Shown piece after piece: positions 32,670-53,720 of a stretch of 64,000 nt of DNA; the stretch's first letter is position 1; each line of letters starts with the position of its first letter. Below the pieces are notes generated by a model. That model saw only the letters and a list, made by a program, of their open reading frames with translations, did not search any database and was not told the origin of the DNA. The position numbers were made by a program, and so were the translations under genes. Source of the stretch: a virus (lineage: Duplodnaviria; Caudoviricetes); IMG/VR virus record IMGVR_UViG_3300010357_001370, positions 10,927 to 74,926 of that record; one strand, 5' to 3'.

Positions 32670-33086
32670 ATGACGTCTGCTGAGCATACCAAGTTTCGTT
32701 CTACTAAGATTTGGAAAGAGTTTCGAAAAAGTATTATACAAACCCGAGGAGCAATTTGTGAATGCTGTGGAACAAGGTATTCCGGAAAGAGAACCAAGCA
32801 GCTTCAAATACATCATAAAGATCCGGTCAATTATACAGATTTGAACCCTGAGAAGTTCGTTATTTTAGATTCCAGTTGCCATGATCTTATTGAAAGAATG
32901 TCCACTAAATTAAAGGGTTCGCGGTCAGGGGATATCCCCCACTTGGAGAATTGGATTAGACTTCTCTATACTTTTCTACCGTATGAAACTCAAAGGATAG
33001 TGGTTGAGAAATATGATGATTATCTATCAAGCAAGATGCCTGACGAGTGGAAAGATTTATGTAGGACAAACGAAAACGAGCCTTGA
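32670..33086 (+). CDS. HNH endonuclease-like protein
   Basis: CECCG...LQIHHKDP...CHDLIE. Confidence 0.7.
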   Translation: MTSAEHTKFRSTKIWKEFRKSIIQTRGAICECCGTRYSGKRTKQLQIHHKDPVNYTDLNPEKFVILDSSCHDLIERMSTKLKGSRSGDIPHLENWIRLLYTFLPYETQRIVVEKYDDYLSSKMPDEWKDLCRTNENEP

Positions 33087-33804
33087 AGAACGTAGGTGCA
33101 GGCACGAATATAATGCATTTTCAAAGAATATGCAAACCTACTTTTATAGAGCGTTAAGAAAGTATGGAAAAGATGATTTCGAATGGTCTATAATTTATGA
33201 GGCAAGCGAATTAGAGGATTTAGATGTACTCGAAATTCAATTTATAGAGAGTCTAAATACGCTTGTACCTAATGGATATAATCTTACGAAGGGCGGCGAC
33301 GGTGGAGACACTTTTTCTAGACTTTCTTCTGAAGAACAAGATCAAAAACGAAGGAAAATGAGTTTAGCTAGTACAGGACGTCGCGCTATTACTACGTTAG
33401 GTAGACAAAGATTAAGAGAGAATATGTTAAAAAATAATCCGATGAAGAGAGAAGAGGTTCGAAGAAAGGTAAGTGAACATCATGCTGATGTATCTGGAGA
33501 AAATAATCCCATGTATGGAAAAACACATACGGATGAAGTAAAAAAGAAGCTTTCGATTTTAGCAACCGGAAGAGTACCATCAGATGATGTTCGAGCGCTT
33601 TGGTCTCGACAACGCTCAGGAGCAGGTAATCCAAAAGCACATCCAATTCGATGTGTAGAGACGGGAGAAGTATTTTCTCACATCAAAGAAGCTCTTTCGA
33701 GGTATGGGCAAATTAGTATTTCAAGAGCAATACGAGAAAAGAAAACTGCTGGTGGTTATCACTGGGAGAGAATCACAAAAGAAGAATACGAGAGTATACT
33801 ATAA
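33013..33804 (+). CDS. GIY-YIG homing endonuclease with NUMOD3 repeats
   Basis: IYQARCLTSGKIYVGQT, NGYNLTKGGDGG, NPMYGKTHTDEVKKKLS and IRCVETGEVF. Confidence 0.88.
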   Translation: MMIIYQARCLTSGKIYVGQTKTSLEERRCRHEYNAFSKNMQTYFYRALRKYGKDDFEWSIIYEASELEDLDVLEIQFIESLNTLVPNGYNLTKGGDGGDTFSRLSSEEQDQKRRKMSLASTGRRAITTLGRQRLRENMLKNNPMKREEVRRKVSEHHADVSGENNPMYGKTHTDEVKKKLSILATGRVPSDDVRALWSRQRSGAGNPKAHPIRCVETGEVFSHIKEALSRYGQISISRAIREKKTAGGYHWERITKEEYESIL

Positions 33805-34071: not shown

Positions 34072-36408
34072 ATGGATTCAACACGACTGCGCGAAGGCGT
34101 AACTACATATCTAAGCTCTGCCTTTCCTCAATCTCAGATAGCGCGACAAGGCTTTATGGGTCGTCTATCGTCTCTTTGGGGATGGAGAGCTAGCTCTGCT
34201 CAAGATTCTCAGACAAAGTTATCAAAGAAGGCCGGCGTTCAGTTTGTTCGTGTTGATCCGAACAATAAGTCAATGCGGGAGCTTGATGCCAAACTAGGAG
34301 CGCTTTTCCAGAACGTTCCTCTTTCCGACCGACTTGAAAAGCTCTTCGAAGCATGGCTTCGCGATAGTACGAATGGATACGATGATCTTCGAGATCGTCA
34401 GAAGCGTATTAACGAGCTCAACTTCATGTACTATAATGATCCGTTTATTAGCCGCGTCGTTCAGCTTGTAGCTGATGAAGCCACGCAGCTCGATGTTCAG
34501 GATCGTCTCCTTTCCGTAGAGAGCCCTGACCCGCGAATGGCTGAGCGAATCTATCAGCTCCTCGATATGTGGGGCATCAATCAGCAGCGCATCCATGGCA
34601 TGTGCTTCGATTTGGAGCTTTGCGGTGAAGGTTTCTGGGCTAATAAGATTACAGCGAACGGCGTTGAGAAGATCATTCCTCTTCAGGTAGGGCAGATCCT
34701 CGAACGCCTTGAGTTCAATCCTACAAAGGTAGCTGAGGAGATCAGAGCACGCCAGGGATCGATCATGACAATGATCAATCGCGATGCTAAGCTCCAGATG
34801 CTCTTACAGTCCTTCGAAGAGCTGCAGGTCACAGAAAACTTCGCAGAGATGTTCGAGACAAAGCTTTTTGGTTACGTTATCGATAACGAAACAGTTGTCC
34901 CGCCGTGGACGGTTACGCACTTCCGTCTAAATGCCGATCACTCAGAATTTTATCCATATGGACGCCCGCACCTCCTAGCAGCCCTAGCACCATTCAAGCA
35001 AGCTGCTTCGACAATGACGCTCCAGTCTCTTGCACGTATCCTCTCCTTCCCCGTAACGCTCTATAAGGTTAAGACGGCACAGGGAATGGATACTGCAATG
35101 GTCTGGGACCACGTCAACAGCGTTCGAGAGCAGTATGACAACATCGGTGTTAATCCCGTTGCCGGTCAGTCTGAGGTCTACTCAGTTAACACCAAGATTT
35201 GGATTCCAGATGGTCTACTCGAAGTAGATGTCAAGGAGTCTAAGGCCGATATCGACTTCGTAGGCGACCTCGAAATGTACATCGATCGTATCTGTATCGC
35301 GTCTGGTGTACCGAAAGGTTATCTCGTCCAGGAGTGGGGCGGGTTTGGTGCTAGCGCAGTTTCCTTAACTGAGCAGTTCAAGCCGTTCGCTCGCCACGTC
35401 TATACCATTCAGGCTTCCTTCCTCGAAGGTCTAGCTGATTTGATTCGCCTACACTTCGTTATTACTGGTGAGTTTGATTACACTACACCGTTTACACTCT
35501 CTATGCGCTTCCCGGCCGAAGAAATGTCCGAAGATAAGCGCAATGCTCGTCAAGGATCTATAGATCTCGCTAAAGATGTCATGGAGCTTATCGGTACTGC
35601 AATGGGTGTAAGTGATGAAGAGCCTCTACCGCCAGATGTCGTTAAGGATATCATGGCCAAATACACCTTCCTTGATCCTACTGACGTCCTTAAGTGGACA
35701 AAGCAAGTAGGTGATCAGGTTCTTATTGCTAAGTCCCGCAGCGGGGACGACGACGAAGAAGGCGGAGGTGGTTCTTCCAGCGGAGGCGGCTCCAGTGGCG
35801 GCGGCGGAGGCCTCGATGAGCTAGAAGATATGCTCGGCACCGAAGGTGGCGAGGATATCGGCGGAGGCGATGAAGGTGGTGGGGAAACTACAGAAGAGAG
35901 TATGCGCCGTTCCCGCCGATTCGCCTTGAACAGAATTCGAGAAGCTCGCTTTAAGGAACTTCGAATGCGCTACCGGGAAGTAAAGGATGATCTATACTTT
36001 AAGATACTCCGACAGAACAATATTACAGAGTTTACGCGTAACAAGCGCCACGTTATGCTAGCTAAAAATATTCATTATTCTCAGGAACCGATGTTTGAGA
36101 CGCTGAATGCTTGGAGAGAGTATCAGAAGACGGGCAAGGGTCCTGCTAAGATGAAGACACTTCACGAAACGCTAGTAGCTATGAAATTAGAAGATGCTAC
36201 GCCGAACGCCGGAGATATGAAGTTTGAAAATATCAAGGCAGACATGTCCAAGGAGCGCGCACATCTCGAAGAAGACGTTCCGGGCCCGAGGAATGAGAGT
36301 TGGACCGAACATCTAACAGAAGATCTCAGCGACGGGTTTAATGACGTTGAGTCTCAGGAGGCCGCAGTAGATGATAGCGGGGATTTAGTACAAGAAGGGG
36401 ATAGATAA
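34072..36408 (+). CDS. Portal protein, T4 gp20-like, with a Gly/acidic linker and C-terminal extension
   Basis: ELNFMYYNDPFISRVVQLVADEA, HFR, YGRPHL, FKQ, ASGVPK and QFKPFARHVYTIQ; head-module context. Confidence 0.8.
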   Translation: MDSTRLREGVTTYLSSAFPQSQIARQGFMGRLSSLWGWRASSAQDSQTKLSKKAGVQFVRVDPNNKSMRELDAKLGALFQNVPLSDRLEKLFEAWLRDSTNGYDDLRDRQKRINELNFMYYNDPFISRVVQLVADEATQLDVQDRLLSVESPDPRMAERIYQLLDMWGINQQRIHGMCFDLELCGEGFWANKITANGVEKIIPLQVGQILERLEFNPTKVAEEIRARQGSIMTMINRDAKLQMLLQSFEELQVTENFAEMFETKLFGYVIDNETVVPPWTVTHFRLNADHSEFYPYGRPHLLAALAPFKQAASTMTLQSLARILSFPVTLYKVKTAQGMDTAMVWDHVNSVREQYDNIGVNPVAGQSEVYSVNTKIWIPDGLLEVDVKESKADIDFVGDLEMYIDRICIASGVPKGYLVQEWGGFGASAVSLTEQFKPFARHVYTIQASFLEGLADLIRLHFVITGEFDYTTPFTLSMRFPAEEMSEDKRNARQGSIDLAKDVMELIGTAMGVSDEEPLPPDVVKDIMAKYTFLDPTDVLKWTKQVGDQVLIAKSRSGDDDEEGGGGSSSGGGSSGGGGGLDELEDMLGTEGGEDIGGGDEGGGETTEESMRRSRRFALNRIREARFKELRMRYREVKDDLYFKILRQNNITEFTRNKRHVMLAKNIHYSQEPMFETLNAWREYQKTGKGPAKMKTLHETLVAMKLEDATPNAGDMKFENIKADMSKERAHLEEDVPGPRNESWTEHLTEDLSDGFNDVESQEAAVDDSGDLVQEGDR

Positions 36409-37745
36409 TGGCTATTTCAACTGCTATTCAGACCAGCGGCGCAACTATACAATTTGGAACAGTCAGCGGTTCCGCATTTACTGCTGGTAATATTAGAATT
36501 AAGGGATCAGCTACCGTAGACGGTCAGCTAGATATCAATTCTTCTGCTGCACTCGCTGTGACTGCTTCCGTACTGGCCGTCACAGCTTCTGGAGCGGTAG
36601 GCATCACATCCTCTAAGCCTATTCAAGCAGCGTCGTCCGCGGTGATTGGTGGCTCCGGCGGAGTTCTCCCCGCTACGTCCGGATCGCTTTCTGCAGGAGG
36701 TGGACTCCTCGTTAAAGATGAGACATCTGGTAAGAATTGGTTCCTCCACGTACACGCAGATCGTATTAGGTTGTTCGACGGGGTATCGACAGAGCTAGTC
36801 TTTACCACTCCGGCTGATTCCATAGCCCAGGCTACCAATGCTCTCGCCTGCTCAGGTAACGCCGCAACCGCTACTCTTGCTGCAGCAGCTACAAAACTTG
36901 CAACAGCTCGAACGATTGGTGGGGTCAGCTTTGATGGGACAGCAAACATCAATCTCCCTGGCGTTAACACATCCGGTAATCAGAATACCTCAGGAAATGC
37001 CGCTACTGCGACACTAGCTGCTACAGCTACTACAGCAACAAATGCTCTTGCATGTTCCGGTAATGCCGCTACTGCGACACTAGCTGCTACAGCTACTACA
37101 GCAACAAATGCTCTTGCATGTTCCGGTAATGCCGCTACTGCGACACTAGCTGCTACAGCTACGATTAGCTACAATAATAGATCAGCAGCTAACTACCAGA
37201 TCTTATTTGGCTCCGGTGTCGGGCTATATGCTTCAGACCTTGTAACAATGAATCCCAGCACAGGAACAATCACAACTACAAATATTAGCGGAGCAGGCCG
37301 AGGAGGAATAATTTCCGGCTTCAGTAAAGTCTATAATGCTGTTTGGAATGATTATGCCGACTATATTTCTCTTGAAGGGCCAATTCCAATAATTCCAGGC
37401 CGGGTCTATTCGTACAACGGGCACTTTCATCAGATAGCCTCGTCGTATGCTGAGATGGGAGTAATCGGTATCTGTTCCGATACTTTCAGCTTTGTTGCAG
37501 GTCATAAAGAAGATGAATTCCAAGTACCAATTGCAGTCTGCGGATTCGTCTTAGCTTACGTTGATAAAGTCTATCCGTCAGGGACTCCACTCACGTCAGC
37601 CACCGACGGTGGGCTAACCGAGATGACTCTAGAAACCAAAATGAAGTTCCCGGAGCGTTTGCTAGCTACTTTTTATAAAGAAGAGAGAAGCACCGCTTGG
37701 TACGGAATAGAGGTTAATGGACGGCACTGGGTTCAAGTTCGCTAA
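36408..37745 (+). CDS. Fibre/tail-appendage-like protein with GNAATAT repeats and a probable C-terminal chaperone/autocleavage domain
   Basis: GNAATAT and ARTIGGVSFDGTANINLPGVN are common tail-fibre motifs; VYNAVWNDYADY...GICSDT...IAVCG is typical of phage fibre C-termini. Confidence 0.7.
   Translation: MAISTAIQTSGATIQFGTVSGSAFTAGNIRIKGSATVDGQLDINSSAALAVTASVLAVTASGAVGITSSKPIQAASSAVIGGSGGVLPATSGSLSAGGGLLVKDETSGKNWFLHVHADRIRLFDGVSTELVFTTPADSIAQATNALACSGNAATATLAAAATKLATARTIGGVSFDGTANINLPGVNTSGNQNTSGNAATATLAATATTATNALACSGNAATATLAATATTATNALACSGNAATATLAATATISYNNRSAANYQILFGSGVGLYASDLVTMNPSTGTITTTNISGAGRGGIISGFSKVYNAVWNDYADYISLEGPIPIIPGRVYSYNGHFHQIASSYAEMGVIGICSDTFSFVAGHKEDEFQVPIAVCGFVLAYVDKVYPSGTPLTSATDGGLTEMTLETKMKFPERLLATFYKEERSTAWYGIEVNGRHWVQVR
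36996..37162 (+). repeat. Exact 66-bp tandem repeat, about 2.5 copies, in frame in the fibre gene
   Basis: Copies start at 36996, 37062 and 37128 and encode NAATATLAATATTATNALACSG. Confidence 0.9.
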
Positions 37746-37782
37746 TTTTTCCGTATATTATAAGTCTCTATAAGGAGTTGCT

Positions 37783-38025
37783 ATGGACCTGCGACACAAT
37801 ATTACTATATGCACTCGATGCAAGAAGCCCCTAACAGGCTTGAAGTACTACATCTCGTTAAAGATGGACGCACTAAAAGAAAAGGAAAGCGGGGCTTGGG
37901 AAACAATACCCACTCTCGACCTAACTACAAATGAGGTGGTTTGTGACACTTGCTTTGAAACATTCTCGCAAGCCATAATTGCAGGTATGTCGCAGGAGAA
38001 GGCCGATGAGTCTTCAGCGTCCTGA
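37783..38025 (+). CDS. Small Zn-finger-like protein
   Basis: CTRC...CDTC; RBS AAGGAG; coupled to the radical SAM gene. Confidence 0.6.
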   Translation: MDLRHNITICTRCKKPLTGLKYYISLKMDALKEKESGAWETIPTLDLTTNEVVCDTCFETFSQAIIAGMSQEKADESSAS

Positions 38026-39175
38026 GGAACTGGGGATAACTCAGTTCGAACTTGTAGTAACCGAAAACTGCAATTCGAAGTGTACATACTGCTTCGATAA
38101 CTATTTCGCCGGACAGCGCATTAACACAAAGGATCCTACTCGTTGGATGCAACCGGAGCTTATTCCAGACCTGATCAAGTTTATGGATAAGACCTGCGCT
38201 GATCCAAAGCAGGAAAAGCGTCTCAACATTCACTATATCGGCGGCGAACCTCTCATGAATTTTGAATTTATGAAAGCAAGTGTCCCGGCATTCAGAGAGC
38301 ACTTTGGCCCACGCGTAACGTTTTCTATCAACACAAATATCCTACTCATCACAGATGAGATTCTAGAGATGTTTGTAAAGTACAACTTCAATATCACGAC
38401 ATCTATCGATGGAGGCCGAGAGTCCCATAACGCTCACCGAGGAAACTGGGAGAAGGTAATTGAGAACCTGATACGTATCAAAGCAGCTTTTCTTGATGCT
38501 AAGGGTCCGGGAGCCGATGTAGCTGCCATCGGAGCAGTGTTTGTTGTTAGTGCCGATCGATCCGATTATGTCGTCGAGGATTATAGAACTCTTTCCAAGT
38601 TCTGCAATTGTCGTATTAACCTTAATGCCGAGGATCCGCTCTGGACCGACCAAAAGGTAGACGATGTCTGCAACGCAATTCGTACAATCGCCGCTACTAC
38701 ACCAGATTTCTTTTCAGGAGATCTCGTCGGTGGATTTGAGCCTAAGTATTGGACAGCAATAGAGGGCAATGGAAGTCCATTCTTCTGTCACACGCCGATA
38801 CATAATGTAACAATCAATCCGATGGGTAAGCTATTTTTCTGCCACAGACTTACTCCAAAGTCCTATGAATTTACTCCAGAGTTTTCGGAATTCTATGGTG
38901 ATATTTACCAGGGATATTATAACACCGACTACTACACCAGCATGATAGAATGTCGTGTTGGGGGATCTAACATGTTCGAGGATTGTAAAACATGTAAATA
39001 CGTTAATATGTGTCGGCAGAATTGCCGTGCAGTACACATTGCTAACGGCGGTAAAGTTAATAAAATCATGTGTAAGTATATTCAAACGTACTTCGATCTT
39101 CTAGAACAACACTACGGTCGGGCACTAAATAGGAAGCCTAATAGAGGAGATCTCAATGCCAACCTGTGCACCTAA
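38006..39175 (+). CDS. Radical SAM/SPASM maturase 1
   Basis: CNSKCTYC, IGGEPL, INTN, SIDG and SPASM CH...CKTCKYVNMCRQNC; ATG 38006 has RBS AGGAG. Confidence 0.9.
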   Translation: MSLQRPEELGITQFELVVTENCNSKCTYCFDNYFAGQRINTKDPTRWMQPELIPDLIKFMDKTCADPKQEKRLNIHYIGGEPLMNFEFMKASVPAFREHFGPRVTFSINTNILLITDEILEMFVKYNFNITTSIDGGRESHNAHRGNWEKVIENLIRIKAAFLDAKGPGADVAAIGAVFVVSADRSDYVVEDYRTLSKFCNCRINLNAEDPLWTDQKVDDVCNAIRTIAATTPDFFSGDLVGGFEPKYWTAIEGNGSPFFCHTPIHNVTINPMGKLFFCHRLTPKSYEFTPEFSEFYGDIYQGYYNTDYYTSMIECRVGGSNMFEDCKTCKYVNMCRQNCRAVHIANGGKVNKIMCKYIQTYFDLLEQHYGRALNRKPNRGDLNANLCT

Positions 39176-40106
39176 CTATTTAAACGTCGGATATAAGGAA
39201 TATTTTAACGCCACCGGAGCAAATTGTCAGCAGTACACAAATGGTGGCGGAAACGCTTGTGTTCAATATTGCCCTGCGAACGCAACTACCTACAACAGAT
39301 ACGGAAATGCTTATACTCCAGCCTGTACAGAGGCTCGCTGCGCTCAATCATATATAAACGCCTTTGACGATTGCGCGCAGTACTACAACTATTCAAACTA
39401 TCTGAATTATACGCGAAACGTTTCTGGAGCCGGAGCGTATTCTCTTGGACTTAATACTACACTTATCGATAGTGTTACGACTGTAGACGCTACTGCTATC
39501 AGCGCAATTAAGCATATGCGAGATAAGCTAGTAGAGCTCGTTAACAATAAGCCCCAGCAATCTACAGTTCCTGAAACCGGGCTTACTGCAGTCTCTGATG
39601 CTACTTTTGACGACGGCAACCCGTCGACGATAGAGAAAACTGCCGCAGCCCAGTACAATGCTCTTCAATCTAAGTTTGCCGCTCTCCGGAATGCCATCAA
39701 TACCGGGGTAGCCGTTAGTTCAACTCAAGTCGCACCCGGGGATACTCTTACTAAGAACCACCTAACAGCTTTGAAAACAGATCTAACAAACTTAGCGGCT
39801 GCCTGTTATCAGACATACGCTAATCAGCAAGTAGGTGCAGGGTACGCTAACGCCAACAGTGCATATACTCGCGCTGTTTATGGCGCTTCGGTTGCGTACA
39901 CAAATGCATACTGCGCAGAGTATATCTGTACCAACACGGGCTCCGGCTGCGGGCAATACAATTACTCGGATTATTCCAATTGTACGAATACATTGAGTTG
40001 CGGCAACTGCCGAAATTCGGGTCACTATAACTATAGTAATTACTCGAATCATGCAAATCATTCAAATCATTCGAATTATTCAAATGTTTGCAGAAGAGAT
40101 TACTAA
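39156..40106 (+). CDS. Cys/Tyr/Asn-rich protein 1, candidate radical SAM substrate
   Basis: 19 (Y/H)-x-N triads and about 15 Cys in the terminal regions, around a helical core. Confidence 0.75.
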   Translation: MPTCAPNYLNVGYKEYFNATGANCQQYTNGGGNACVQYCPANATTYNRYGNAYTPACTEARCAQSYINAFDDCAQYYNYSNYLNYTRNVSGAGAYSLGLNTTLIDSVTTVDATAISAIKHMRDKLVELVNNKPQQSTVPETGLTAVSDATFDDGNPSTIEKTAAAQYNALQSKFAALRNAINTGVAVSSTQVAPGDTLTKNHLTALKTDLTNLAAACYQTYANQQVGAGYANANSAYTRAVYGASVAYTNAYCAEYICTNTGSGCGQYNYSDYSNCTNTLSCGNCRNSGHYNYSNYSNHANHSNHSNYSNVCRRDY

Positions 40107-40120
40107 AGAGGTAGTGAGAT

Positions 40121-41116
40121 ATGCCATCCTGTGCACCAAACTATGCTAACGTAGGCTACAAAGAATACTTTAATGCCGCGGCTCCGGGAGTACAATACTC
40201 GAATTATGCAAATCTGTGTATACAGACATACTGTGCAGACTCTCGTGTAGCCTACTACGGTAACACAGGAGCTGGTGGCGGAGGTATATGTAACCAAGGT
40301 GTATGCTATCAAACCTGTACGAACTTCAATCAGTACGGTACCACGTACCCAGCAAATAAAGATGACTGCTCTCAGTATTCTAATTATAGTAACTGTACAA
40401 ATTATGCCCGAAACGGTGGCGGAGCGGGCACAGTTCTTCCTGCACTCAGCCTCGATCAGTCTGTCATTGATGGAATAACAGACATACCAACGTCAATTAC
40501 AGCTGTAACCCATCTTCGAGATAAGTTAGCAACCTTAATTAGCCTTAAGCTAAGACAGGACACGGTCGACGACGCGATGCCTTCGACGATCAGCGATGCT
40601 ACGTTTAATGATAGTAACTCAGCTACTGCTGAAATAACTCTAGCTACTCAGTATAATGCTCTGAAAACTAAAATGGACGCTTTTTGGAATGCATTAAAGG
40701 CTGGAGGAACTACTCTCACTACTCCTAGCTCGGATGCGGTAAAATCTTCTGGAGATACCCTTTTTAAGAATAGTATACTGGCTCTTAAAACGGATCTGGT
40801 GACTATAGCAAATGCATGCTCGCAGACATACGCTAACTATCAGAATGGTTACGCAGCTGTTCTTGCTGATACCTATACGAATAGCGTCGCTACATATACT
40901 AGAACGACAGTGTATAGAGATGCGTTCTGTAGCCAGTTAGTTTGCACAAACACAGGTGGCGGTTGCGGCCAGTACAATTATTCGAATTATAATAATTGTA
41001 CAAATACTGTCTGGCACAACCGATACATGAATACTCAGGATTGTTGGAATTACGCTAATCACAGTAACCATTCGAACCATTCAAATTATCGCGATACCTG
41101 TAGACGAGATAACTAA
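40121..41116 (+). CDS. Cys/Tyr/Asn-rich protein 2, paralogue of protein 1
   Basis: Shared MP(T/S)CAPNYxNVGYKEYFNA start, HxRDKL, SDATF, QYNAL, ALKTDL and HSNHSN...CRRD end. Confidence 0.75.
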   Translation: MPSCAPNYANVGYKEYFNAAAPGVQYSNYANLCIQTYCADSRVAYYGNTGAGGGGICNQGVCYQTCTNFNQYGTTYPANKDDCSQYSNYSNCTNYARNGGGAGTVLPALSLDQSVIDGITDIPTSITAVTHLRDKLATLISLKLRQDTVDDAMPSTISDATFNDSNSATAEITLATQYNALKTKMDAFWNALKAGGTTLTTPSSDAVKSSGDTLFKNSILALKTDLVTIANACSQTYANYQNGYAAVLADTYTNSVATYTRTTVYRDAFCSQLVCTNTGGGCGQYNYSNYNNCTNTVWHNRYMNTQDCWNYANHSNHSNHSNYRDTCRRDN

Positions 41117-41132
41117 CTAAGAGGAGAATAGC

Positions 41133-41831
41133 ATGACTTGTGAACTACAGTGGGATATTAAAGCTCAGGCTTTTAAGGGTATAGCCCAATTTACATATGC
41201 AGAGGACCCATCTAATCTTCCATTTGACGAACACGGATTCTACTATGGCGTTAAGTATGGATTTGATGGAGTAGTTACCGAGCGGTATTACGCTCTTCAA
41301 CCCGGGGATATCTTCGTGAACGAGGATGCAGAAGATCCGGACCGTATCACTACCTTTAAGAGTATCACTAGGCGTACAGTGACTCCTACCGATTTCTACA
41401 TATCCTATAGGTCCCGACCCTTTACTTATCTAGATAATCATCCAGAGATTCAGGTGGATAGCAGGCTTCTCGCTGCAGCAAACGGTCTCGGAATTCGGTA
41501 TAACGCAGAATCGAAGGAAACTCTCGTATACTATGTACATGCTGTAGATCCTCGATGTCGGATGTTGATTGAGGGAACAGACGATGCGGCTTATCTGCGA
41601 GAAGATGCGGATTTCTTAAAGTTTACTCAAGAGCAAGCCGCTGCATTAACAGAATTCAAGTCTGCCGCAGGCGTTTCGTTCCACGGATTTGGAATAACCC
41701 ATCTTGCAGAGATTATTATTGTTCCAGGTATTTATCGATATGTAGCTTTTTGGAACAACGATATTCTAAAGGATTATCTTAATTTCTGGGAGGGAGAGTA
41801 TGCACTTCCTGGTCAGATTTTCAACGTGTAA
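41133..41831 (+). CDS. Hypothetical protein within the radical SAM cluster
   Basis: 232 aa, RBS GAGGAG; ACTAACTA upstream at 41112-41119. Confidence 0.6.
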   Translation: MTCELQWDIKAQAFKGIAQFTYAEDPSNLPFDEHGFYYGVKYGFDGVVTERYYALQPGDIFVNEDAEDPDRITTFKSITRRTVTPTDFYISYRSRPFTYLDNHPEIQVDSRLLAAANGLGIRYNAESKETLVYYVHAVDPRCRMLIEGTDDAAYLREDADFLKFTQEQAAALTEFKSAAGVSFHGFGITHLAEIIIVPGIYRYVAFWNNDILKDYLNFWEGEYALPGQIFNV

Positions 41832-41840
41832 GGAGTCGAA

Positions 41841-43202
41841 ATGTTCCAGTTTAATAATCAACTCGTCTTAAAGGTAACGAAGGGTTGCAATCTTCGTTGT
41901 GAGTACTGCTATGTAATGAATAAGGACCTTCATGAAGGTCAGTTTATAGATTTTGAGCTCTATAAAAAAATTATTGATGCTGTTGTTCTAGATAGACTTA
42001 AGTCTACTCAAGGTAAGAATGAAGACTTTAATTTAACCTTTCATGGTGGCGAGCCTACCACTATTAACAAAACTAGATTTTTCCAGATGTGTGAGTATGC
42101 CCGGGATAAGTTTTTCAAAGCCGGGCTTCATTTGTCGCTATCTATTCAAACAAACCTCACCCTCATCGATGAGGAGTGGTGCCAGCTTTTTAACCGCTTT
42201 AATGTAGCTGTCGGAGCTAGTTGGGACGGAACTGGACCGGCTAACGAAGCTCGTACAGACAAGTCTGAAGACTTCTATCATGAGAAGACTCAGATGTTTA
42301 AGAAGTATAATGTTCAGCACGGGTTTCTACTCGTAGTAAATCGGCATAGTGTAGACTATATCCCAGAGTCGCTAGAGATCCTAAAAAACAAATTCCATAA
42401 AAACCAAGGTCGACTCAACTACGTAGAGGATGTGATTACTCCCTTTGGGCAACCGAGTAGTATAGAAGTACCTGGAAAGGAATTTTTTGAAAAGGTGACA
42501 AAAGCCCAGGTAGATCAGTTCATCGCTACCGGCCAGTGTTTTGATGGTAATATTACAAATAGCATAGAAAAGTTTATGATTGACTACCTGACGAATGTAG
42601 GTAGCTTGTACCCGGAAAACGGTAACTGCTACGTCAAGTATTGCGGCTCTGGAATCAACGTATTGGAAATGGACCCTGACGGTTCCGTTCTCTTTTGCGG
42701 CCGATACGGGGATGCTTATGAAGATGCCATTCTCATGCACGGGCTTGATGAAGACTTTCTCTCTATGAAGCAAATACTAAAACATCTAGAGTTTCAGAAA
42801 GCTAAGATTGCAGCAATGAAGCGATCTCATTGCGACGACTGCAAAGCTCAGAATATTTGTGACCACGGTTGCATGGCATATCACTATACGAAGCCGCAGG
42901 CGGACGGAACCCACAAGTGGGGTATTCGAAATGATCTAACGTGCGCTATGTTTAAGCCTCTATATGATTATATGTTTGAGCATGCTAACGATATTTTTGA
43001 GTCATATTTTAAGAACGACGTCGTCCCAGCCGGACAGACTCAACTTAGCCTACCAAAGTCTTCTAATTTCTATCCAGAGCTAAGTGTTTCTAAGATTCAA
43101 GATAGACTCCAGAAGTACGGGATAACAGTCGAAATTCGGGATTCGCGAATTATATTTAATGCACAGCGCCAGGGGTCATATGACCATACGGCTCATTGTT
43201 AG
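41841..43202 (+). CDS. Radical SAM/SPASM maturase 2
   Basis: CNLRCEYC, FHGGEP, QTN, SWDG and SPASM CYVKYCG...C...CDDCKAQNICDHGC. Confidence 0.92.
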   Translation: MFQFNNQLVLKVTKGCNLRCEYCYVMNKDLHEGQFIDFELYKKIIDAVVLDRLKSTQGKNEDFNLTFHGGEPTTINKTRFFQMCEYARDKFFKAGLHLSLSIQTNLTLIDEEWCQLFNRFNVAVGASWDGTGPANEARTDKSEDFYHEKTQMFKKYNVQHGFLLVVNRHSVDYIPESLEILKNKFHKNQGRLNYVEDVITPFGQPSSIEVPGKEFFEKVTKAQVDQFIATGQCFDGNITNSIEKFMIDYLTNVGSLYPENGNCYVKYCGSGINVLEMDPDGSVLFCGRYGDAYEDAILMHGLDEDFLSMKQILKHLEFQKAKIAAMKRSHCDDCKAQNICDHGCMAYHYTKPQADGTHKWGIRNDLTCAMFKPLYDYMFEHANDIFESYFKNDVVPAGQTQLSLPKSSNFYPELSVSKIQDRLQKYGITVEIRDSRIIFNAQRQGSYDHTAHC

Positions 43203-43210
43203 GAGACTCA

Positions 43211-44233
43211 ATGTCGAACGTCATTCTTACTCATGCATGCAATAAAGGTTGTTCATACTGCTTTGCTCGTGAAACTCGCGACTCTCACGTAACTGTTGGA
43301 GCATGTGCAGACGATGTGCATATGTCAATGGAGATGTTTTCATCTATCCTTGACAAGCACGTAGCCAATCTGCCTCCGGGTCGAGCAGGTCAGGTTAAGC
43401 TTCTCGGTGGTGAGCCAACTCAGCATCCTAAATTCGACGAGATCCTTGCGCTCTGCTATGAGAGGAATATTGAAGTAACTCTGATCTCTAATTTTCTCTT
43501 CTCTAAGGAGAAGCGAGATATTATTCTAAAGTATCTTGAAGCGCGCCCCATGCATTTTCTTATCAACTCTACGGAGCTTGATCAGAAGAACCGTATGGAG
43601 ATCTTCAAGGAAAACTATAATGAGATATATAAGTTTCTATATGCACGAAATGCTGAAGACAATATGTCGTGCGGGCTGACGCTTGATCAGGATGTAGGAA
43701 TTGAATATTACATAAACTATATTGATTACTTGAAGGATAACCTCATCGCAATTGAGCATATGCGAGTAAGCTTATCCTTCCCTGGCGATACGGATAAGAA
43801 GAATCAGTTTTTCTTTATTAACAATACTAAGCTTGGCGATAGCTTGGTGTTCATTACAAAGAAGCTTCTAGATGCTAATATCCCAGCTAACCTCGATTGT
43901 ATTAACTTCCCGTGTATGTACGAGTCTAAAGAAGAGTCTAAGTTTGTAAAGAAATTCTTAGCTGGATCAGATAAGTATATCTGCGGAACCGGTCCCGGCC
44001 CTACGGACTATATGCCCGACGGAACAGCCATCTATTGCTATCCAAATGCTAACACCGTAGTAGACGCTACTAGACTAAAGTCCGATACCGCAGTTCAGGA
44101 ATCTCTTCGTATGAAATACCAGATTGCTAGAGCTACTCTAGTACTACCCGATGCCTGTCAGGAATGTAATGCTAGAAAGGCTGGGCAGTGCGACGGCCCC
44201 TGCTTAGGTTTCTTTAGTTATGATAAGATCTGA
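43211..44233 (+). CDS. Radical SAM protein 3 with SPASM-like Cys
   Basis: CNKGCSYC, LLGGEPTQHP and C-terminal CQECNARKAGQCDGPC; ATG 43211 has RBS AGGAG. Confidence 0.88.
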   Translation: MSNVILTHACNKGCSYCFARETRDSHVTVGACADDVHMSMEMFSSILDKHVANLPPGRAGQVKLLGGEPTQHPKFDEILALCYERNIEVTLISNFLFSKEKRDIILKYLEARPMHFLINSTELDQKNRMEIFKENYNEIYKFLYARNAEDNMSCGLTLDQDVGIEYYINYIDYLKDNLIAIEHMRVSLSFPGDTDKKNQFFFINNTKLGDSLVFITKKLLDANIPANLDCINFPCMYESKEESKFVKKFLAGSDKYICGTGPGPTDYMPDGTAIYCYPNANTVVDATRLKSDTAVQESLRMKYQIARATLVLPDACQECNARKAGQCDGPCLGFFSYDKI

Positions 44234-45341
44234 TGTTAATTTAACATATGTTACACTTCTGGTTACAGAGAACTGCAATCAGAAGTGTACGTACTGTTAT
44301 GATAACTTTTTTGCAGGCGAGCGTGTTAACAGTGATAAGCCAGATGCCTGGCTATCTGTAGATATGCTTCCGAGTATTGTATCTTTTGTAGACAGCCACA
44401 GAGACAAATCTAAACCTATCCGATTTCATTATATCGGTGGCGAACCTCTTTTGAATTTCGAATTTGTCAAAACCAGCGCTAAGCAGCTGTTCTTACATTA
44501 CGGTCCGTCTACAAAATTCTATATCAATACTAATCTTACTATCCTAACAGACGAGATGATTGATACTTTTGTAAAGTACCACTTTACAGTTACCACGTCG
44601 ATAGATGGTCGTAGAGAGGCTCACAATAGGTATAGAGCAAATTGGGATCTCGTAATTCAAAATCTGATCCGACTAACAACGCGGTATATAGAAGCTTTCG
44701 GGCCTGATCATAATAGTATCCGGTCTAACTGCGTAGTTAGCGCTGCTAACGTGTCGACTCTATTAGAAGATTTTTTAGCAATCAATCGTTTTTGTCCATT
44801 ACAGCATCTAGACTTCAATGCAGAGGACCCGGACTGGACTCCAAACAAGCTAGAGGAATTAAAGAGAGTTATTCAAACTATTGCAAGGTTAGTCCCGAGC
44901 TTCTTAAACGAGAACGGGGTGTATCAATCCGCAGTTAAGGCTCAAACAGATTCTAAGTATTGCTGTAACCCTCATAGAACAGTAACAATAGGTCCCAGGG
45001 GTCGTCTTTACTTTTGCCACCGCCTCGTTCCTAAGTCCTATGTATTCACTCCCGGTTTCACAGAGTACTACGGAGATATATATGCCGACTACTCTAATAC
45101 AGAGTATTTCGAACGAATGGATACGTACGAGAAAAATATAGGTCCCGAGTGTGCCGCTTGTAAATATCTTAAGTACTGCAAAGGTGGCTGCAGAGCCTTA
45201 GATTGTAGTCCGAATCCGTTACCGAAAGGTATTGGGGTTCACCCAGATTGTACGTACCAGGGTATCATCTACGACATATACGAAGAACTTAATAGTAAGT
45301 CTCTTAGTTCAGAATCCTTACCGTCTTCACCGGCGCCATAG
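44220..45341 (+). CDS. Radical SAM/SPASM maturase 4, paralogue of maturase 1
   Basis: VTENCNQKCTYCYDNFFAG versus VTENCNSKCTYCFDNYFAG; CAACKYLKYCKGGC. Confidence 0.9.
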   Translation: MIRSDVNLTYVTLLVTENCNQKCTYCYDNFFAGERVNSDKPDAWLSVDMLPSIVSFVDSHRDKSKPIRFHYIGGEPLLNFEFVKTSAKQLFLHYGPSTKFYINTNLTILTDEMIDTFVKYHFTVTTSIDGRREAHNRYRANWDLVIQNLIRLTTRYIEAFGPDHNSIRSNCVVSAANVSTLLEDFLAINRFCPLQHLDFNAEDPDWTPNKLEELKRVIQTIARLVPSFLNENGVYQSAVKAQTDSKYCCNPHRTVTIGPRGRLYFCHRLVPKSYVFTPGFTEYYGDIYADYSNTEYFERMDTYEKNIGPECAACKYLKYCKGGCRALDCSPNPLPKGIGVHPDCTYQGIIYDIYEELNSKSLSSESLPSSPAP

Positions 45342-46165
45342 CAGAATTTGCAACCTGCTGTAAATTCTCTATTCCAGATTTGATGAGCTATATCGCGAGT
45401 GCGTTCTGTACCTAGCATTTCAAGCACCGGGGTACTGAACGCATTCCCTATGTAAGTGCCATCTTCGCGTAGCGGCTGGCATACACAAAGCGAAACTTCT
45501 CCGGTAGTTAAGACAGATACTTGAAACGGGGAACAGTGTTCGAGTTTTGGAACAGTAGACCAATCCCGGATTGCGGGGTCTTGTAGAGACGGAAGACCTA
45601 GTCTTTCAAGGTAGTTCTCAAAGTCATATTCCGGGTCGATCAGCCATTTCATAAAGCCTTCAGAGTAGACATCGATAGTTGTACCAGACTGCATTTCCGG
45701 TACAACAGCAGGACCCATATTAGGATGATAGACGCGCTTAGCCTGCACCTGTGTTGGAGCGATAGCTTGGAGACGTCTATAGTTTTCGAGAGTAAGGTCA
45801 AGAAGAGACTGAGGGATTGCATAATCGCTAAAGTCAACCGCTACGTATTGAATTTTAGTTAGCGTGCGGAGGTTTTCATCTGTCAATTCTGTAGCTAAGT
45901 TAGTTGCGATATAGATGAGGTGAAACCCTGCCGTGGCGAGACGATCTACAATCTCAAAGAAGTTCGGATTCATTAAAGACTCGCCTGCGGGAATAAAGAA
46001 GATACCTAGTCGATCCTTATCGTGTTGATTCAGAACAATAAAGCGTTCGATATCGGGAACGGTCATTATGTGGGTACCGTGCTGAGCTACTCCGGGGATA
46101 ATGCAGCAATGCGGACATCTCTTTTGACAGATACCATATACGGCGTGAAGGTTTATATTGATCAT
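45269..46165 (-). CDS. Radical SAM protein 5 (SPASM/twitch-type C-terminus)
   Basis: CQKRCPHC, GESLMNP, ATN and CVC...CKFC. Confidence 0.8.
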   Translation of the reverse strand: MININLHAVYGICQKRCPHCCIIPGVAQHGTHIMTVPDIERFIVLNQHDKDRLGIFFIPAGESLMNPNFFEIVDRLATAGFHLIYIATNLATELTDENLRTLTKIQYVAVDFSDYAIPQSLLDLTLENYRRLQAIAPTQVQAKRVYHPNMGPAVVPEMQSGTTIDVYSEGFMKWLIDPEYDFENYLERLGLPSLQDPAIRDWSTVPKLEHCSPFQVSVLTTGEVSLCVCQPLREDGTYIGNAFSTPVLEMLGTERTRDIAHQIWNREFTAGCKFCYGAGEDGKDSELRDLLLSSSYMS

Positions 46166-47083
46166 TTATGCCTCTACGAGATTACGAAGTAGCTCTTGAA
46201 ACGTCGGATCATCCTCACGTCCACAGCCTTTGCAACCTTTACAGGGAGCGAGCTTCCGGTTGTAGACGACGTCGTATGCGCGCTTAGACTGTTCAGTTTT
46301 GAAGAGATCGAACAGCGGAGTAGTGAATGCGTTCCCTGCATTAAGCTCCTCATGTCCCAGCGGCATCAGTCCGCAGTACGCTACCATTCCGGTCGGGAGA
46401 ACTACCACTTGGCTCGGAATACAAGTAGCGTCAGTTACATCGGTGCTGGTAAATATCATCTCTCGATTATTTACTATCGTAGGGTCGCTCGGATGAATAT
46501 CGATCTGTTTGAGGTAGCGAAAATAATCGAACTTCGGCATTATATATTTGACCATGTCCCGAGAGAATATCTCCACCGGTTCCGGTTGTAAGTTTATGCG
46601 GGAAGCTATGCGATCAGGAAGGACATACGAGTCTCTCGGATGGTACACCTTCTTTAGATGCACGTTGCTATTCTTAGCGATTCCTACTAAACGCTCCCAG
46701 TTGCTCGCTACTAGATCAGATTGCCATCGGGGAACCCGATATGAGCTAATATCTACTGCGATGTCTTTAATTTTACTAAGAGTTTGGAGCTGTTCGTCGG
46801 TGAGATTAAGTGCAAGGTTAGTCGACATATGAAGGAGATTGAAGCCCGCTTCGTCTAGTGCATCTATAATTTTGAAGATATCCTTATTGATGAGAGGCTC
46901 TCCCATAGGAATTATGAGAATGAGAAACTTATCAGCGTGAGCTTTGTTCAGTCGAATGAATGCCTCAATATCGGATAGCGTAATGTACTGAGGCTCTGCA
47001 TATTCTCGCATGTATGGGATAACACAGTGACAGCAAGGACGCTGGCATGCTCCGTATGTTAGATACAGATTAACTCGAATCAT
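46166..47083 (-). CDS. Radical SAM protein 6, paralogue of protein 5
   Basis: CQRPCCHC, GEPLINKD, STN and YCG...CKGC. Confidence 0.8.
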   Translation of the reverse strand: MIRVNLYLTYGACQRPCCHCVIPYMREYAEPQYITLSDIEAFIRLNKAHADKFLILIIPMGEPLINKDIFKIIDALDEAGFNLLHMSTNLALNLTDEQLQTLSKIKDIAVDISSYRVPRWQSDLVASNWERLVGIAKNSNVHLKKVYHPRDSYVLPDRIASRINLQPEPVEIFSRDMVKYIMPKFDYFRYLKQIDIHPSDPTIVNNREMIFTSTDVTDATCIPSQVVVLPTGMVAYCGLMPLGHEELNAGNAFTTPLFDLFKTEQSKRAYDVVYNRKLAPCKGCKGCGREDDPTFQELLRNLVEA

Positions 47084-48092: not shown

Positions 48093-48591
48093 GACAGAGG
48101 AGAGAAGAGCTGCTCAAGCGGAACGGGCTCGAGCTCTCTGGGTCGATCCGGAACATAGAGCGCGTGTATTAGCTACTCGTTCCGCCACTTGCGAAGCCCG
48201 TCTTGAAGCTCTTCCCCTCGATGAAAAAGAGAAGCGGCTAAAAGATAGAGAGAGATCAGCTCGGTGGAAGCGCGGGGACCCTATTCCAGAGGACAGTTAT
48301 ATCTATAAAAAGCCTCCTGAGTTTAGTCAAAAAGTCTCCGCAGCTCTAAAGGGTCGTCCTAAAACTGTGGAACATAAACAACATCTTTCAGAAGCCCGAA
48401 GAGCTAACCCGCGAGAATATTCTGATGCTGAACGACAAAGTAAATCTGCTAAAATGACTGGCCGTACTTGGATACATTTTGAAAAGACATCTAAGATGTG
48501 TACTCAAGAAAATCTGCCAGACTATCTTGCTGAAGGCTGGCAGATTGGTCGAGCTCCTAAATATCCCACTTCAAAAGGTAACGAGGGTTAA
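48089..48591 (+). pseudogene. NUMOD3-type homing-endonuclease C-terminal part without a nuclease domain
   Basis: KVSAALKGRPKTVEHKQHLSEA and KMTGRTWI...GWQIGR; the N-terminus of the tracked ORF (48007) is only the antisense of the remnant above. Confidence 0.55.
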
Positions 48592-49645
48592 TATATTTCA
48601 TCGAAATGCTCGGATTGTCCTTAGCACGAAGAACGATACCCTCACGAACCTTGTCCGTGATGATGAATGTCCCCTCGGAGAGCTTTGCGACATCCTCCAA
48701 CGTCTTGAGAGGAGGAACGTCGATGACCCATGGAACCATCTGGAACAGCTCGCAGTTGTCATCCTGGGTGAACGTGTCATCGAAGACGTGGCTGAGCTCA
48801 TCGAGTACGAAGGCGATCTCGCTATTATCGAGACGCGTAGCGGTGTCGAGGTTCTGGACGGTGAAAACGAACAGCTTCACCTCAGTGAGGCCGATTCGGT
48901 TGCTCTGAATGCCAGGACCAGCCACCTCACCCTGAATGGCGAAGTTGGTCATCCTGCCAGTAGCAGCGTACTTACGCATGCGCTTCTCGATGTTGTACTT
49001 GCGAGCCATCTTCCAGAAGATGTTGCTCTCAGTATCCTTCAGCTCCTGGTTGCGGCTGCAAACTCCGAACTCTCCGTTGAAGAGGAAGTAGGTGCCGCTC
49101 GACCCGTCCATCTTGACAGTGACGTCGAACTCATGCTCAGCGAGCATCTTCTCGAGAACGTCCTGCTCGAACCCCTGAGCCCTCAGCTCATCAGTCTTCT
49201 CGATGAAGCCCGGGAATGGACCCTTGGTGTCGCCACCGATCTGAGCAGTCTCCGGAATCTCGTACTTGACGACTCCGAGAGCGTCAGTAACGTCGGCACC
49301 TTCGAGAAAACGATTTGCATCGATAGCATTCTGAGGAGGGTACTTAAGCACGTCTGCAAAGTCTTCCAGAGGCATACTGAGACCCTGGCTTACCTGGCCG
49401 CGGAGCTTGATAGTCTTGACACGGTAGTTGTAGGGTGCCATGAACTCGAAAATCGGAAGCTTCGGAAGAACCGAATCAACCTCGAAGTAGACGCGCCTAT
49501 CGCCAGGCTGCGGATTGGTATCTTTGTTGGTGACGCAGACCCAACCCATCGACTCGAACGTGATCTTAACAATGCTGTCAGCGTTCGGGATAGGCTCGAC
49601 CGTCTTAATAGTCCTGATTGTTGCTAACTTACGCTTAATATCCAT
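48557..49645 (-). CDS. RNA ligase, DRB0094/Rnl2-related family
   Basis: LATIRTIKTVEPIPNADSI, YFEVDS, LRGQVSQGL, KMDGSS, QGEVAGPGIQ and REGIVLR. Confidence 0.88.
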   Translation of the reverse strand: MDIKRKLATIRTIKTVEPIPNADSIVKITFESMGWVCVTNKDTNPQPGDRRVYFEVDSVLPKLPIFEFMAPYNYRVKTIKLRGQVSQGLSMPLEDFADVLKYPPQNAIDANRFLEGADVTDALGVVKYEIPETAQIGGDTKGPFPGFIEKTDELRAQGFEQDVLEKMLAEHEFDVTVKMDGSSGTYFLFNGEFGVCSRNQELKDTESNIFWKMARKYNIEKRMRKYAATGRMTNFAIQGEVAGPGIQSNRIGLTEVKLFVFTVQNLDTATRLDNSEIAFVLDELSHVFDDTFTQDDNCELFQMVPWVIDVPPLKTLEDVAKLSEGTFIITDKVREGIVLRAKDNPSISMKYINPRYLLKWDI

Positions 49646-53690: not shown

Positions 53691-53720
53691 ATAATATCGA
53701 ATTGCCTCTCTAAAAATCAA
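53691..53720 (-). promoter_or_regulatory. Sigma70-like promoter TTGATT-N18-TATTAT upstream of rIIB
   Basis: Overlaps the rIIA stop codon. Confidence 0.55.

Follow-up and report, generated by a model that had tools for sequence, protein, structure and literature searches.

Paired triad-array proteins of a large phage as probable protein-sized substrates of a conserved radical-SAM maturation cassette

Why should a phage encode two adjacent proteins whose ends are crowded with aromatic-x-Asn triads in the midst of genes for radical S-adenosylmethionine (rSAM) enzymes? This question is raised by a stretch of 64,000 nucleotides, referred to here as the window, which corresponds to bases 10927-74926 of the 74.9-kb IMG/VR virus contig IMGVR_UViG_3300010357_001370. 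The completeness of the contig was estimated at 29% using CheckV, and the source genome is therefore that of a large phage. The two proteins, p1 and p2, are paralogues sharing ~48% identity, and six rSAM genes, named rSAM1 to rSAM6, lie around them (Table 1). The first-pass annotation of this DNA had read p1 and p2 as substrates of the neighbouring rSAM/SPASM enzymes, and on the comparative evidence presented below this is very probable. The best explanation, to which we assign a probability of roughly 0.6, is that p1 and p2, as whole proteins, serve as substrates for a conserved maturation cassette that is carried by phages and performs a triceptide-type reaction, with a product that would be associated with the virion.

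Counting of the triads bore out the first-pass figures: p1 carries 19 (Tyr/His)-x-Asn triads and p2 carries 17 plus one Trp-x-Asn (W-H-N), with 15 Cys residues in each protein. A centre free of both had also been described and was found to be present, albeit with a length of ~125-135 amino acids (aa) rather than the ~110 aa given before; in p1, Cys is absent between residues 73 and 217 and triads are absent between residues 84 and 221. Shuffling of the whole proteins gave mean values of 4.8 triads for p1 and 3.6 for p2, with 0 of 5000 shuffles reaching the actual counts, revealing the triads to be at 4-5 times expectation and, in p1 as in p2, confined to the ends. When shuffling was restricted to the Cys/Tyr/Asn-rich ends, by which the compositional bias is kept, the N-terminal end had 8 triads compared with 2.0 expected and the C-terminal end 11 compared with 3.3 (p<5e-4). 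Neither the i+1 and i+3 spacings nor the reversed order of residues was enriched. The triad density per 100 aa was 6.0 for p1 and 5.4 for p2, the next value among the 168 open reading frames (ORFs) of the window being 1.35, and no further triad-rich ORF was found in the 10.9 kb upstream of the window. Within p1, 4.3 copies of a 9-bp tandem repeat (40047-40085) encode the Asn-His-Ser run at the end of the protein, so that the length of the array can drift by slippage.

In a word-indexed collection of 5.8 billion proteins, close relatives were confined to nine clusters. An exhaustive profile search with a hidden Markov model of 1.84 billion representatives yielded 32 proteins at E<=1e-3, one of which is an unrelated tape-measure-like protein; the family alignment comprised 33 members. 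The distant members have 195-370 aa and have in common a conserved N-terminal Tyr-x-Glu-Tyr-Phe-Asn block and a variable-length array of Cys-x-(Thr/Val)-Ser-(Tyr/His)-x-(Asn/Asp) units, followed by a conserved junction, the helical core and a short tail starting with Tyr-x-Asn; their repeats are regular, with 10-11 residues each. Scans of IMG/VR added one further locus only, situated on the same contig as locus L009. A tblastn search with p1, P0028 and rSAM2 against 50,697 GenBank phage records revealed no relative of the substrates and, for rSAM2, only remote sulfatase-maturase-like enzymes. None of the 33 members matched a Pfam or PHROG family, and the NCBIfam scan gave one weak match to HxsA3 (E=4e-4) in a single member.

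Triad-rich ends and the overall architecture were kept in 33 of 33 members. Across the family, the N-terminal parts contain 415 triads (154 expected) and the C-terminal parts 199 (70 expected), with 54 triads in the 4259 residues of the cores, giving a total of 668. The only invariant columns of the alignment are Y221 and N223 of p1, which belong to one triad, and the near-invariant positions include Y27 and Y79/N81 (p1 numbering). In the triads Y27-x-N29, Y79-x-N81 and Y221-x-N223, the aromatic residue and Asn/Asp are retained in 97-100% of the members, with the middle residue being identical in 30-41%. In the triads, positions 1 and 3 are thus conserved and position 2 is free. Loss of the triads with retention of the enzymes, named earlier as the case that would speak against a substrate role, was seen in 0 of 33 homologues. 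These data, in which the triads emerge as the best-conserved trait of the family, support the aromatic-x-Asn/Asp triad as the unit under selection.

The same comparison showed which features of p1 and p2 are dispensable. Cys is not universal, as evident from P0037 with 0 Cys and several members with two, and His triads are not universal either, the substrates of L005, L011 and L014 having 0-1 of them. The Cys-x-Asn triads emphasised in the first-pass annotation do exist (four in p1, five in p2), but they are weakly above chance (whole protein, p 0.11 for p1 and 0.017 for p2; within the ends, ~0.02-0.1) and are not conserved family-wide, so that Cys-x-Asn was rejected as a selected unit. More common among the 33 members is a Cys placed before the aromatic residue of a triad, at a distance of 4 in 114 cases and of 3 in 38. 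An N-glycosylation sequon was likewise rejected, the Asn of isolated triads lying in N-x-S/T in 21% of cases against a Ser+Thr background of 20%.

Structure prediction with AlphaFold2 using the 33 sequences gave a bundle of three long helices (residues 112-131, 164-181 and 200-215) for p1 residues 92-219, with a predicted local distance difference test score (pLDDT) of 85-95. The helical core proposed earlier is thus confidently predicted as a helical domain. With the same alignment, residues 1-91 and 220-316 received a pLDDT of ~30; with 9 sequences, pLDDT was 36 and the model told nothing of the fold. Comparison of the core model with the PDB and BFVD using Foldseek retrieved nothing at E<=0.001, and exhaustive VIA-align returned generic helical bundles only, the best Z of 9.8 belonging to a designed filament, a match that says nothing in the case of a helical bundle. 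Nothing in the AlphaFold2 model speaks for the ends forming a solenoid or a disulfide knot; low confidence does not prove them disordered.

For the analysis of gene linkage, rSAM types were defined by all-against-all BLAST clustering of the rSAM ORFs, and nine long loci (the window, L003, L005, L007, L009, L011, L013, L014/15 and L028) and four short contigs of ~2 kb (L010, L016, L025 and L026) were compared. Types A (rSAM2-like, 426-458 aa), B (rSAM1/4-like, 335-401 aa) and C (rSAM3-like, 323-345 aa) were present together with a zinc-ribbon gene in 9/9 long loci, and in 13/13 loci with any context the cassette genes directly adjoin the substrate gene. Type A, often found in 2-3 copies per locus, is directly followed by type C in all long loci; a type B orthologue lies 5' of the substrate gene in most loci, and the zinc-ribbon homologues (68-109 aa) are located immediately 5' of an rSAM gene in every long locus. 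On the short contigs, the neighbours of the substrate gene are types B and A, one on each flank (L016), type B and the zinc ribbon (L026), the zinc ribbon, a second substrate paralogue and type A (L025), or a second paralogue and the zinc ribbon (L010). The substrate gene is wedged between enzyme genes, with stop and start codons often overlapping. The core cassette would consist of one substrate gene or two tandem paralogues, enzymes of types A, B and C, and the small zinc-ribbon protein.

Further enzyme types are distributed more narrowly. Type D (rSAM5 and rSAM6) was found only in the window, L003 and L007, type E (HxsC-like) in L009, L013 and L028, and type F (DUF512) in L011 and outside the gene string of the window (Table 1), the window copy being 37% identical to L011:15827-16975, which lies inside the L011 cassette. 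The enzyme rSAM4 is confined to the two-substrate loci, that is the window, L003 and L007, and is absent from L005; type B (rSAM1 to rSAM4) is duplicated where the substrate is. L005 is a close relative with conserved flanking synteny, in which one substrate is accompanied by types A, B and C only. This single substrate, P0009, of which p2 is the orthologue (59% identity), has no His triad, and its C-terminal array is shortened and Cys-poorer. An IS605 OrfB/TnpB (Cas12f-like) gene (L005:12180-13457) was observed near this reduced cassette, which is without rSAM4, rSAM5 and rSAM6. Tandem substrate pairs were also seen in distant lineages (L010:15-638, L025:363-908 and L011:9093-9968); since such pairs recur, substrate duplication was apparently repeated or ancient.

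A second rSAM cluster was noted upstream of the window, on the minus strand of the contig (5691-10210). It encodes a 343-aa HxsC-like enzyme (type E), a 97-aa zinc-ribbon paralogue, a type A paralogue of 432 aa and a 641-aa protein in which two rSAM domains are fused and two CxxxCxxC motifs occur. Orthologues from this cluster are found in L013, L009 and L028, where they share a cassette with a triad protein. Against about eleven rSAM domains, the phage represented by the window thus has no more than two triad proteins.

Inspection of the six enzymes encoded near p1 and p2 revealed CxxxCxxC near the N terminus in 6/6 and a full SPASM motif (C-x2-C-x5-C-x3-C) with flanking Cys in rSAM1, rSAM2 and rSAM4. 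For rSAM2, the scores were 39.4 bits for PF04055 (cut-off 29.5) and 40.2 bits for the SPASM family TIGR04085 (cut-off 27). Its best NCBIfam match was the anaerobic sulfatase maturase (AnSME), with 115 bits over the full length and below the cut-off. Scores against cyclophane families were 88.7 bits for AmcB (NF041718; cut-off 425), 83.9 for YhhB (NF041707; 445), 80.8 for XyeB (TIGR04496; 450), 70.9 for GrrM/OscB (TIGR04261; 310), 60.1 for FxsB (TIGR04269; 370) and 85.9, again below the cut-off, for DynA. PDB matches of rSAM2 were AnSME (4k36), CteB (5wgg) and the triceptide synthase ChlB (9gm3). By these scores, type A leans to AnSME and to the cyclophane synthases AmcB, DynA, YhhB, XyeB and GrrM. 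For rSAM1, the best NCBIfam matches, all far below the cut-offs, were PapB (112.9 bits), CcpM and QhpD-type enzymes, and type B (rSAM1 and rSAM4) correspondingly leans to these thioether formers and the QhpD type. Only weak matches to generic families were obtained for rSAM3, and sequence search yielded no PDB relative of it. Both rSAM5 and rSAM6 remained narrowly below the Pfam cut-offs (rSAM5, 25.1 bits for PF04055 and 17.8 bits for PF13186), and rSAM6 is distantly related to the HxsC-like type E, as indicated by weak BLASTP links to the 628-aa and 303-aa enzymes of L013.

The rSAM domain begins within ~30 residues of the N terminus in all of the enzymes, and they therefore have no N-terminal recognition domain of the kind found in many maturases of peptides that are made on ribosomes and modified after translation (RiPPs), the RiPP recognition element (RRE). 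AnSME and the cyclophane synthases are likewise without an N-terminal extension of RRE length. Recognition may be supplied by the zinc ribbon or by the folded core of the substrate. Relatives of the 80-aa zinc-ribbon-like protein gave faint Zn_ribbon matches in Pfam, and this protein is a candidate partner of the rSAM enzymes.

It had been suggested that paralogous enzymes divide the Tyr, His and Cys sites among them. For His, there is a hint of this: where substrates have at least 3 His triads (the window group, L009, L013 and L028; four lineages), type D and/or E is present, and where they have 0-1 (L005, L011 and L014; three lineages), neither type occurs in the available DNA. This co-occurrence hints that the accessory enzymes may serve His sites. 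For an enzyme dedicated to Cys there is no support. The family can do without Cys, and the PapB-like type B is still found where the substrate has no more than two Cys, so that type B as a Cys-specific thioether former was rejected.

The following course of maturation is proposed. The helical core would fold alone and serve as a handle or scaffold, and the two unstructured ends would stay extended and be threaded into the enzymes. There, a 5'-deoxyadenosyl radical would take a hydrogen atom from C-beta of Asn or Asp, and the resulting C-beta radical would add to the Tyr or His ring two residues earlier, closing a three-residue cyclophane with an expected loss of 2 Da per triad. The enzymes rSAM5 and rSAM6 and the HxsC-like enzymes upstream of the window would probably act on His triads or form further link types, and the Cys located 3-4 residues before many triads may join in additional links. 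That the triads are the modified sites is likely, judging from their conservation; that the link is a C-C cyclophane, which is argued by analogy with triceptides, has at best about an even chance. Pfam, PHROG and NCBIfam scans of the cluster gave no sign of a protease or exporter, so the product would stay a protein.

Regarding the place of action, in three lineages the cassette is embedded in blocks of tail-fibre/baseplate genes, shares their strand and is closely packed with them. In the window group it follows the tail-fibre-like gene, which is directly upstream in the same string and is taken as context outside the cassette proper. In L009, it is located a few genes after a 901-aa protein resembling the distal subunit of long tail fibres, the intervening genes being those of two unassigned proteins and one type E rSAM enzyme; in L014/15, the genes that come after it encode gp25, a baseplate wedge subunit and P2 gpI. 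Given this location and the failure to recognise a protease, an exporter or a signal sequence, the product is most economically read as a virion element that is rigid and resists proteases, and the chances of a virion association appear evenly balanced. The p1/p2 family itself, in all 33 members, showed no match to known virion proteins in PHROG or Pfam, and its structure matches were generic helical bundles. In pelagimyophages, unexplained rSAM cassettes have been described beside tail fibres, within the host-recognition cluster (PMC7029224). The likeness consists in rSAM genes among the tail-fibre genes of large T4-like phages, and the difference in that those cassettes were reported without named substrates (PMC7029224).

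Among characterised systems, triceptides are the closest in chemistry. The premise of the first-pass annotation that triceptide enzymes link residue i to residue i+2 agrees with the literature (PMC11002830, PMC11499958). Known pairs are Trp/Phe-Asn, Trp-Asp and Tyr-Asp (PMC11002830), as well as His-Ala (PMC11002830, PMC11499958), and the enzymes include XncB/XyeB, OscB/GrrM, MscB/FxsB, YxdB, YhhB, HaaB, HtkB and ChlB (PMC11499958, PMC11002830). Shared with the present system are repeated aromatic-X-X3 motifs in which X3 is often Asn or Asp, many motifs per substrate, and a neighbouring rSAM enzyme of the SPASM type that has no recognition domain at its N terminus. Here, however, a protein with a folded helical core of ~125 aa between two arrays takes the place of the leader-core precursor; three enzyme types plus a zinc ribbon, and up to ~11 rSAM domains per genome, stand against one enzyme in triceptides; and the genes are phage-encoded, located in a tail gene block and without a recognised protease or exporter.

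The HXS system is the closest in logic. In it, the repeat effector HxsA is matured by the rSAM enzymes HxsB and HxsC together with the small HxsD, which demonstrates rSAM maturation of a whole period-3 repeat protein with a small partner (PMC13128918). The present system resembles it in having a whole period-3 repeat protein with at least two rSAM enzymes and a small partner alongside. The cluster upstream of the window scores best against HxsC (TIGR03977, 94.6 bits; cut-off 267.9), and rSAM1 and rSAM4 match HxsB at E ~1e-21 (best score for TIGR03978, 78.7 bits; cut-off 370). A search of the 74.9-kb record for HxsD (TIGR03976) gave no hit at E<=1, the zinc ribbon included; the small zinc-ribbon protein takes the place of the HXS small partner. 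The differences are that His-x-Ser repeats are used there and aromatic-x-Asn/Asp here, that the peptidoglycan-binding domain and the N-terminal processing signal are absent here, and that HXS is a bacterial defence whereas the present genes are carried by a phage.

A third precedent is QhpD, an rSAM/SPASM enzyme that installs several intramolecular cross-links in the Cys-rich QhpC, the gamma subunit of quinohemoprotein amine dehydrogenase, which stays part of a protein. The links in QhpC, like those of the ranthipeptide system PapA/PapB, are thioethers from Cys to Asp/Glu. Both systems use SPASM enzymes, and PapB is the top NCBIfam match of rSAM1 and rSAM4. They differ in that Cys is dispensable here and aromatic-x-Asn conserved, with scores for TIGR03906 and NF047865 at about a third of the cut-offs. 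Taken by its sequence features, the system resembles triceptide and HXS systems in its mode of working and is a member of neither, as scores stay below the cut-offs of the defining enzyme families. Full-text literature searches retrieved no paper on a phage triad-repeat protein with rSAM maturases.

Granting that the triads are the targets, their chemistry may be another one, such as ether or C-N cross-links as in darobactin and dynobactin, a small mass change like that in HXS, C-beta oxidation or epimerisation, or several reactions performed by 3 to 11 enzymes. Three unrelated enzyme types conserved together are more than one reaction needs; the best match of rSAM2, AnSME, is an oxidising rather than a cross-linking enzyme, the upstream enzymes point to HxsC, whose product carries a +8 Da change (PMC13128918), and rSAM1 and rSAM4 lean to the thioether formers PapB and CcpM. 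Yet the strict i/i+2 pairing of an aromatic residue with Asn/Asp around a free middle residue is the signature of triceptides (PMC11499958, PMC11002830). Asn and Asp are both known X3 residues, and scores far below the family cut-offs point firmly to no other reaction, so that a different chemistry is regarded as rather unlikely. More sweepingly, p1 and p2 might be unmodified structural repeats, with the rSAM enzymes acting elsewhere, for instance on a fibre protein, a small molecule or a nucleic acid; candidates are a Cys-bridged or Asn-ladder beta-solenoid, a metal-binding His/Tyr needle like the tip of T4 gp37, or an Asn/Tyr-rich segment of prion-like character. Beta-solenoids can show Asn ladders, aromatic stacks and Cys-containing repeats of 10-12 residues, with which the regular repeats of the distant members are in line; conservation of alternate residues fits the face of a beta-strand, and sugar-activation genes are found beside the cassette in some lineages. 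This reading is, nevertheless, quite improbable, considering that the substrate gene sits amid the enzyme genes at every locus, often with stop/start overlaps, that no other ORF in the window or the 10.9 kb upstream carries the motif, that AlphaFold2 gives the ends no fold while the core models well, and that phage proteins fold in the reducing cytoplasm. A metal needle or disulfide repeat was rejected, Cys and His both being dispensable (P0037; L005, L011 and L014).

The modified protein could also, by analogy with HxsA, be an intracellular or exported effector serving superinfection exclusion or the counteraction of host defence, rather than a part of the particle. HXS, the only experimentally studied system of the same logic, makes a product that blocks phage DNA entry (PMC13128918), and p1 and p2 resemble no known structural protein. 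Such a role is deemed unlikely in view of the N terminus, which is not signal peptide-like, the lack of a peptidoglycan-binding or other Pfam domain, the enzyme scores below the Hxs cut-offs and the placement of the cassette inside tail-fibre/baseplate blocks in three lineages. In the opposite direction, the proposal of triceptide-type maturation could be widened to a chemically stapled particle component with several cross-link types and one enzyme class per aromatic residue type. The three conserved rSAM enzymes, up to eight accessory ones and the zinc-ribbon partner would then make a polycyclic element that withstands proteases and serves host recognition or the function of the tail, that is RiPP chemistry on a virion protein; this extension is tentative and on balance doubtful.

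Several points weigh against the maturation of p1 and p2 by triceptide-type chemistry into a virion element. No enzyme reaches the cut-off of any cyclophane, thioether or Hxs family, and known triceptide substrates are short, leader-bearing peptides, unlike the proteins considered here. One face of a beta-strand would likewise be expected to show conserved i and i+2 positions around a free i+1, and the low pLDDT of the ends may reflect alignment problems with repeats or low complexity instead of disorder. The co-variation of His triads with enzymes comprises ~7 lineages, partly on short contigs and uncorrected for phylogeny. The virion role is drawn from gene neighbourhood alone; the p1 core is without an informative structural relative, and a portal identity of the 778-aa protein at the start of the gene string is unsupported (T4 portal match in Pfam with E=0.0014, below the cut-off).

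The features of the locus are compiled in Table 1. The plus-strand genes form a tightly packed string (34072-45341) in the order 778-aa protein, tail-fibre-like protein, 80-aa zinc-ribbon-like protein, rSAM1, p1, p2, 232-aa protein, rSAM2, rSAM3 and rSAM4, with rSAM5 and rSAM6 converging on it from the minus strand. For the 778-aa protein, no PHROG match was found, and the best PDB match (E=0.004) was to unrelated proteins. The ORF of rSAM1 opens at a TTG at 37979, and the start used in the relatives is the ATG at 38006, giving 389 aa. The 232-aa protein had no Pfam, PHROG or NCBIfam match and no usable atlas match.

Table 1. Position and strand (window coordinates) of the genes and protein parts discussed in the text
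Feature	Position	Strand	Remarks
DUF512-type radical-SAM, type F	13155-14303	-	PF04055 E=6e-15, PF04459 E=3e-8
778-aa protein, opens the gene string	34072-36408	+	89% identical in L005
Tail-fibre-like protein, 445 aa	36408-37745	+	phrog_6722 E=1.6e-20, further tail-fibre PHROGs
Small Cys-rich zinc-ribbon-like protein, 80 aa	37783-38025	+	overlaps the rSAM1 start
rSAM1, type B radical-SAM/SPASM	38006-39175	+	PF04055 E=2.4e-13; CxxxCxxC at residue 31
p1	39156-40106	+	316 residues: N array, helical core, C array
p1 N-terminal triad array, residues 1-91	39156-39428	+	8 triads, 7 Cys
p1 helical core, residues 92-219	39429-39812	+	no triads, no Cys
p1 C-terminal triad array, residues 220-316	39813-40106	+	11 triads, 8 Cys, Y221-x-N223
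p2, p1 paralogue	40121-41116	+	N array 1-100, core 101-231, C array 232-331
232-aa protein	41133-41831	+	orthologues of 231-234 aa in L003, L005 and L007 only (close cassette relatives)
rSAM2, type A radical-SAM/SPASM	41841-43202	+	PF04055; TIGR04085
rSAM3, type C radical-SAM, SPASM-like Cys set	43196-44233	+	PF04055 E=1.8e-10; CxxxCxxC at residue 15
rSAM4, type B, rSAM1 paralogue	44220-45341	+	43% identical to rSAM1
rSAM5, type D, small, partial SPASM/twitch Cys set	45269-46165	-	CxxxCxxC at residue 13
rSAM6, type D, rSAM5 paralogue	46166-47083	-	38% identical to rSAM5

Some further observations were made around the cassettes. In the window, a GIY-YIG and NUMOD3 homing-endonuclease-like gene (33004-33804, plus strand) lies ~270 bp 5' of the 778-aa gene, and the tail-fibre-like gene contains a perfect 66-bp tandem repeat in 2.5 copies (36996-37162), encoding a 22-residue, Ala/Thr-rich unit with one Cys. 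An RNA ligase gene (PHA02142 OB fold plus RNA_ligase; 48557-49645, minus strand) marks the right border of the cassette, which is conserved in L003, L005 and L007, and an rIIA gene follows downstream (53717-55984, minus strand). Promoter and terminator scans yielded background level only, and ACTAACTA was rejected as a promoter motif, its 5 occurrences against 2.2 expected not being significant. On the 90-kb contig of L011, which carries the P0010 cassette, a eukaryote-type topoisomerase IB (Topoisom_I_N, Topoisom_I, Topo_C_assoc; L011:1-390) was found, which is unusual for a phage. Sugar-activation genes adjoin the cassette in three distant lineages (L009:14099-20783, L014:13637-16552 and L028:12669-14346); they encode DAHP_synth_1 (KdsA/NeuB-like), CTP_transf_3, a SIS isomerase, an aminotransferase and a carbamoyltransferase, and none is present in the window cassette. 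With these genes, glycosylation as a further modification becomes conceivable.

Should the triads be cross-linked, p1 and its relatives would be the largest and densest poly-cyclophane substrates known, with up to 37 motifs per protein. Radical chemistry of the peptide-antibiotic type would thereby be extended to a folded viral protein, and three new SPASM enzyme families would be provided with a defined substrate. The natural variation of the substrates, with or without His triads, with or without Cys and in one or two copies, is accompanied by matching enzyme sets and makes the assignment of enzymes to sites testable. If true, the proposal would also offer an explanation for the rSAM cassettes found in the tail-fibre and host-recognition regions of large environmental phages.

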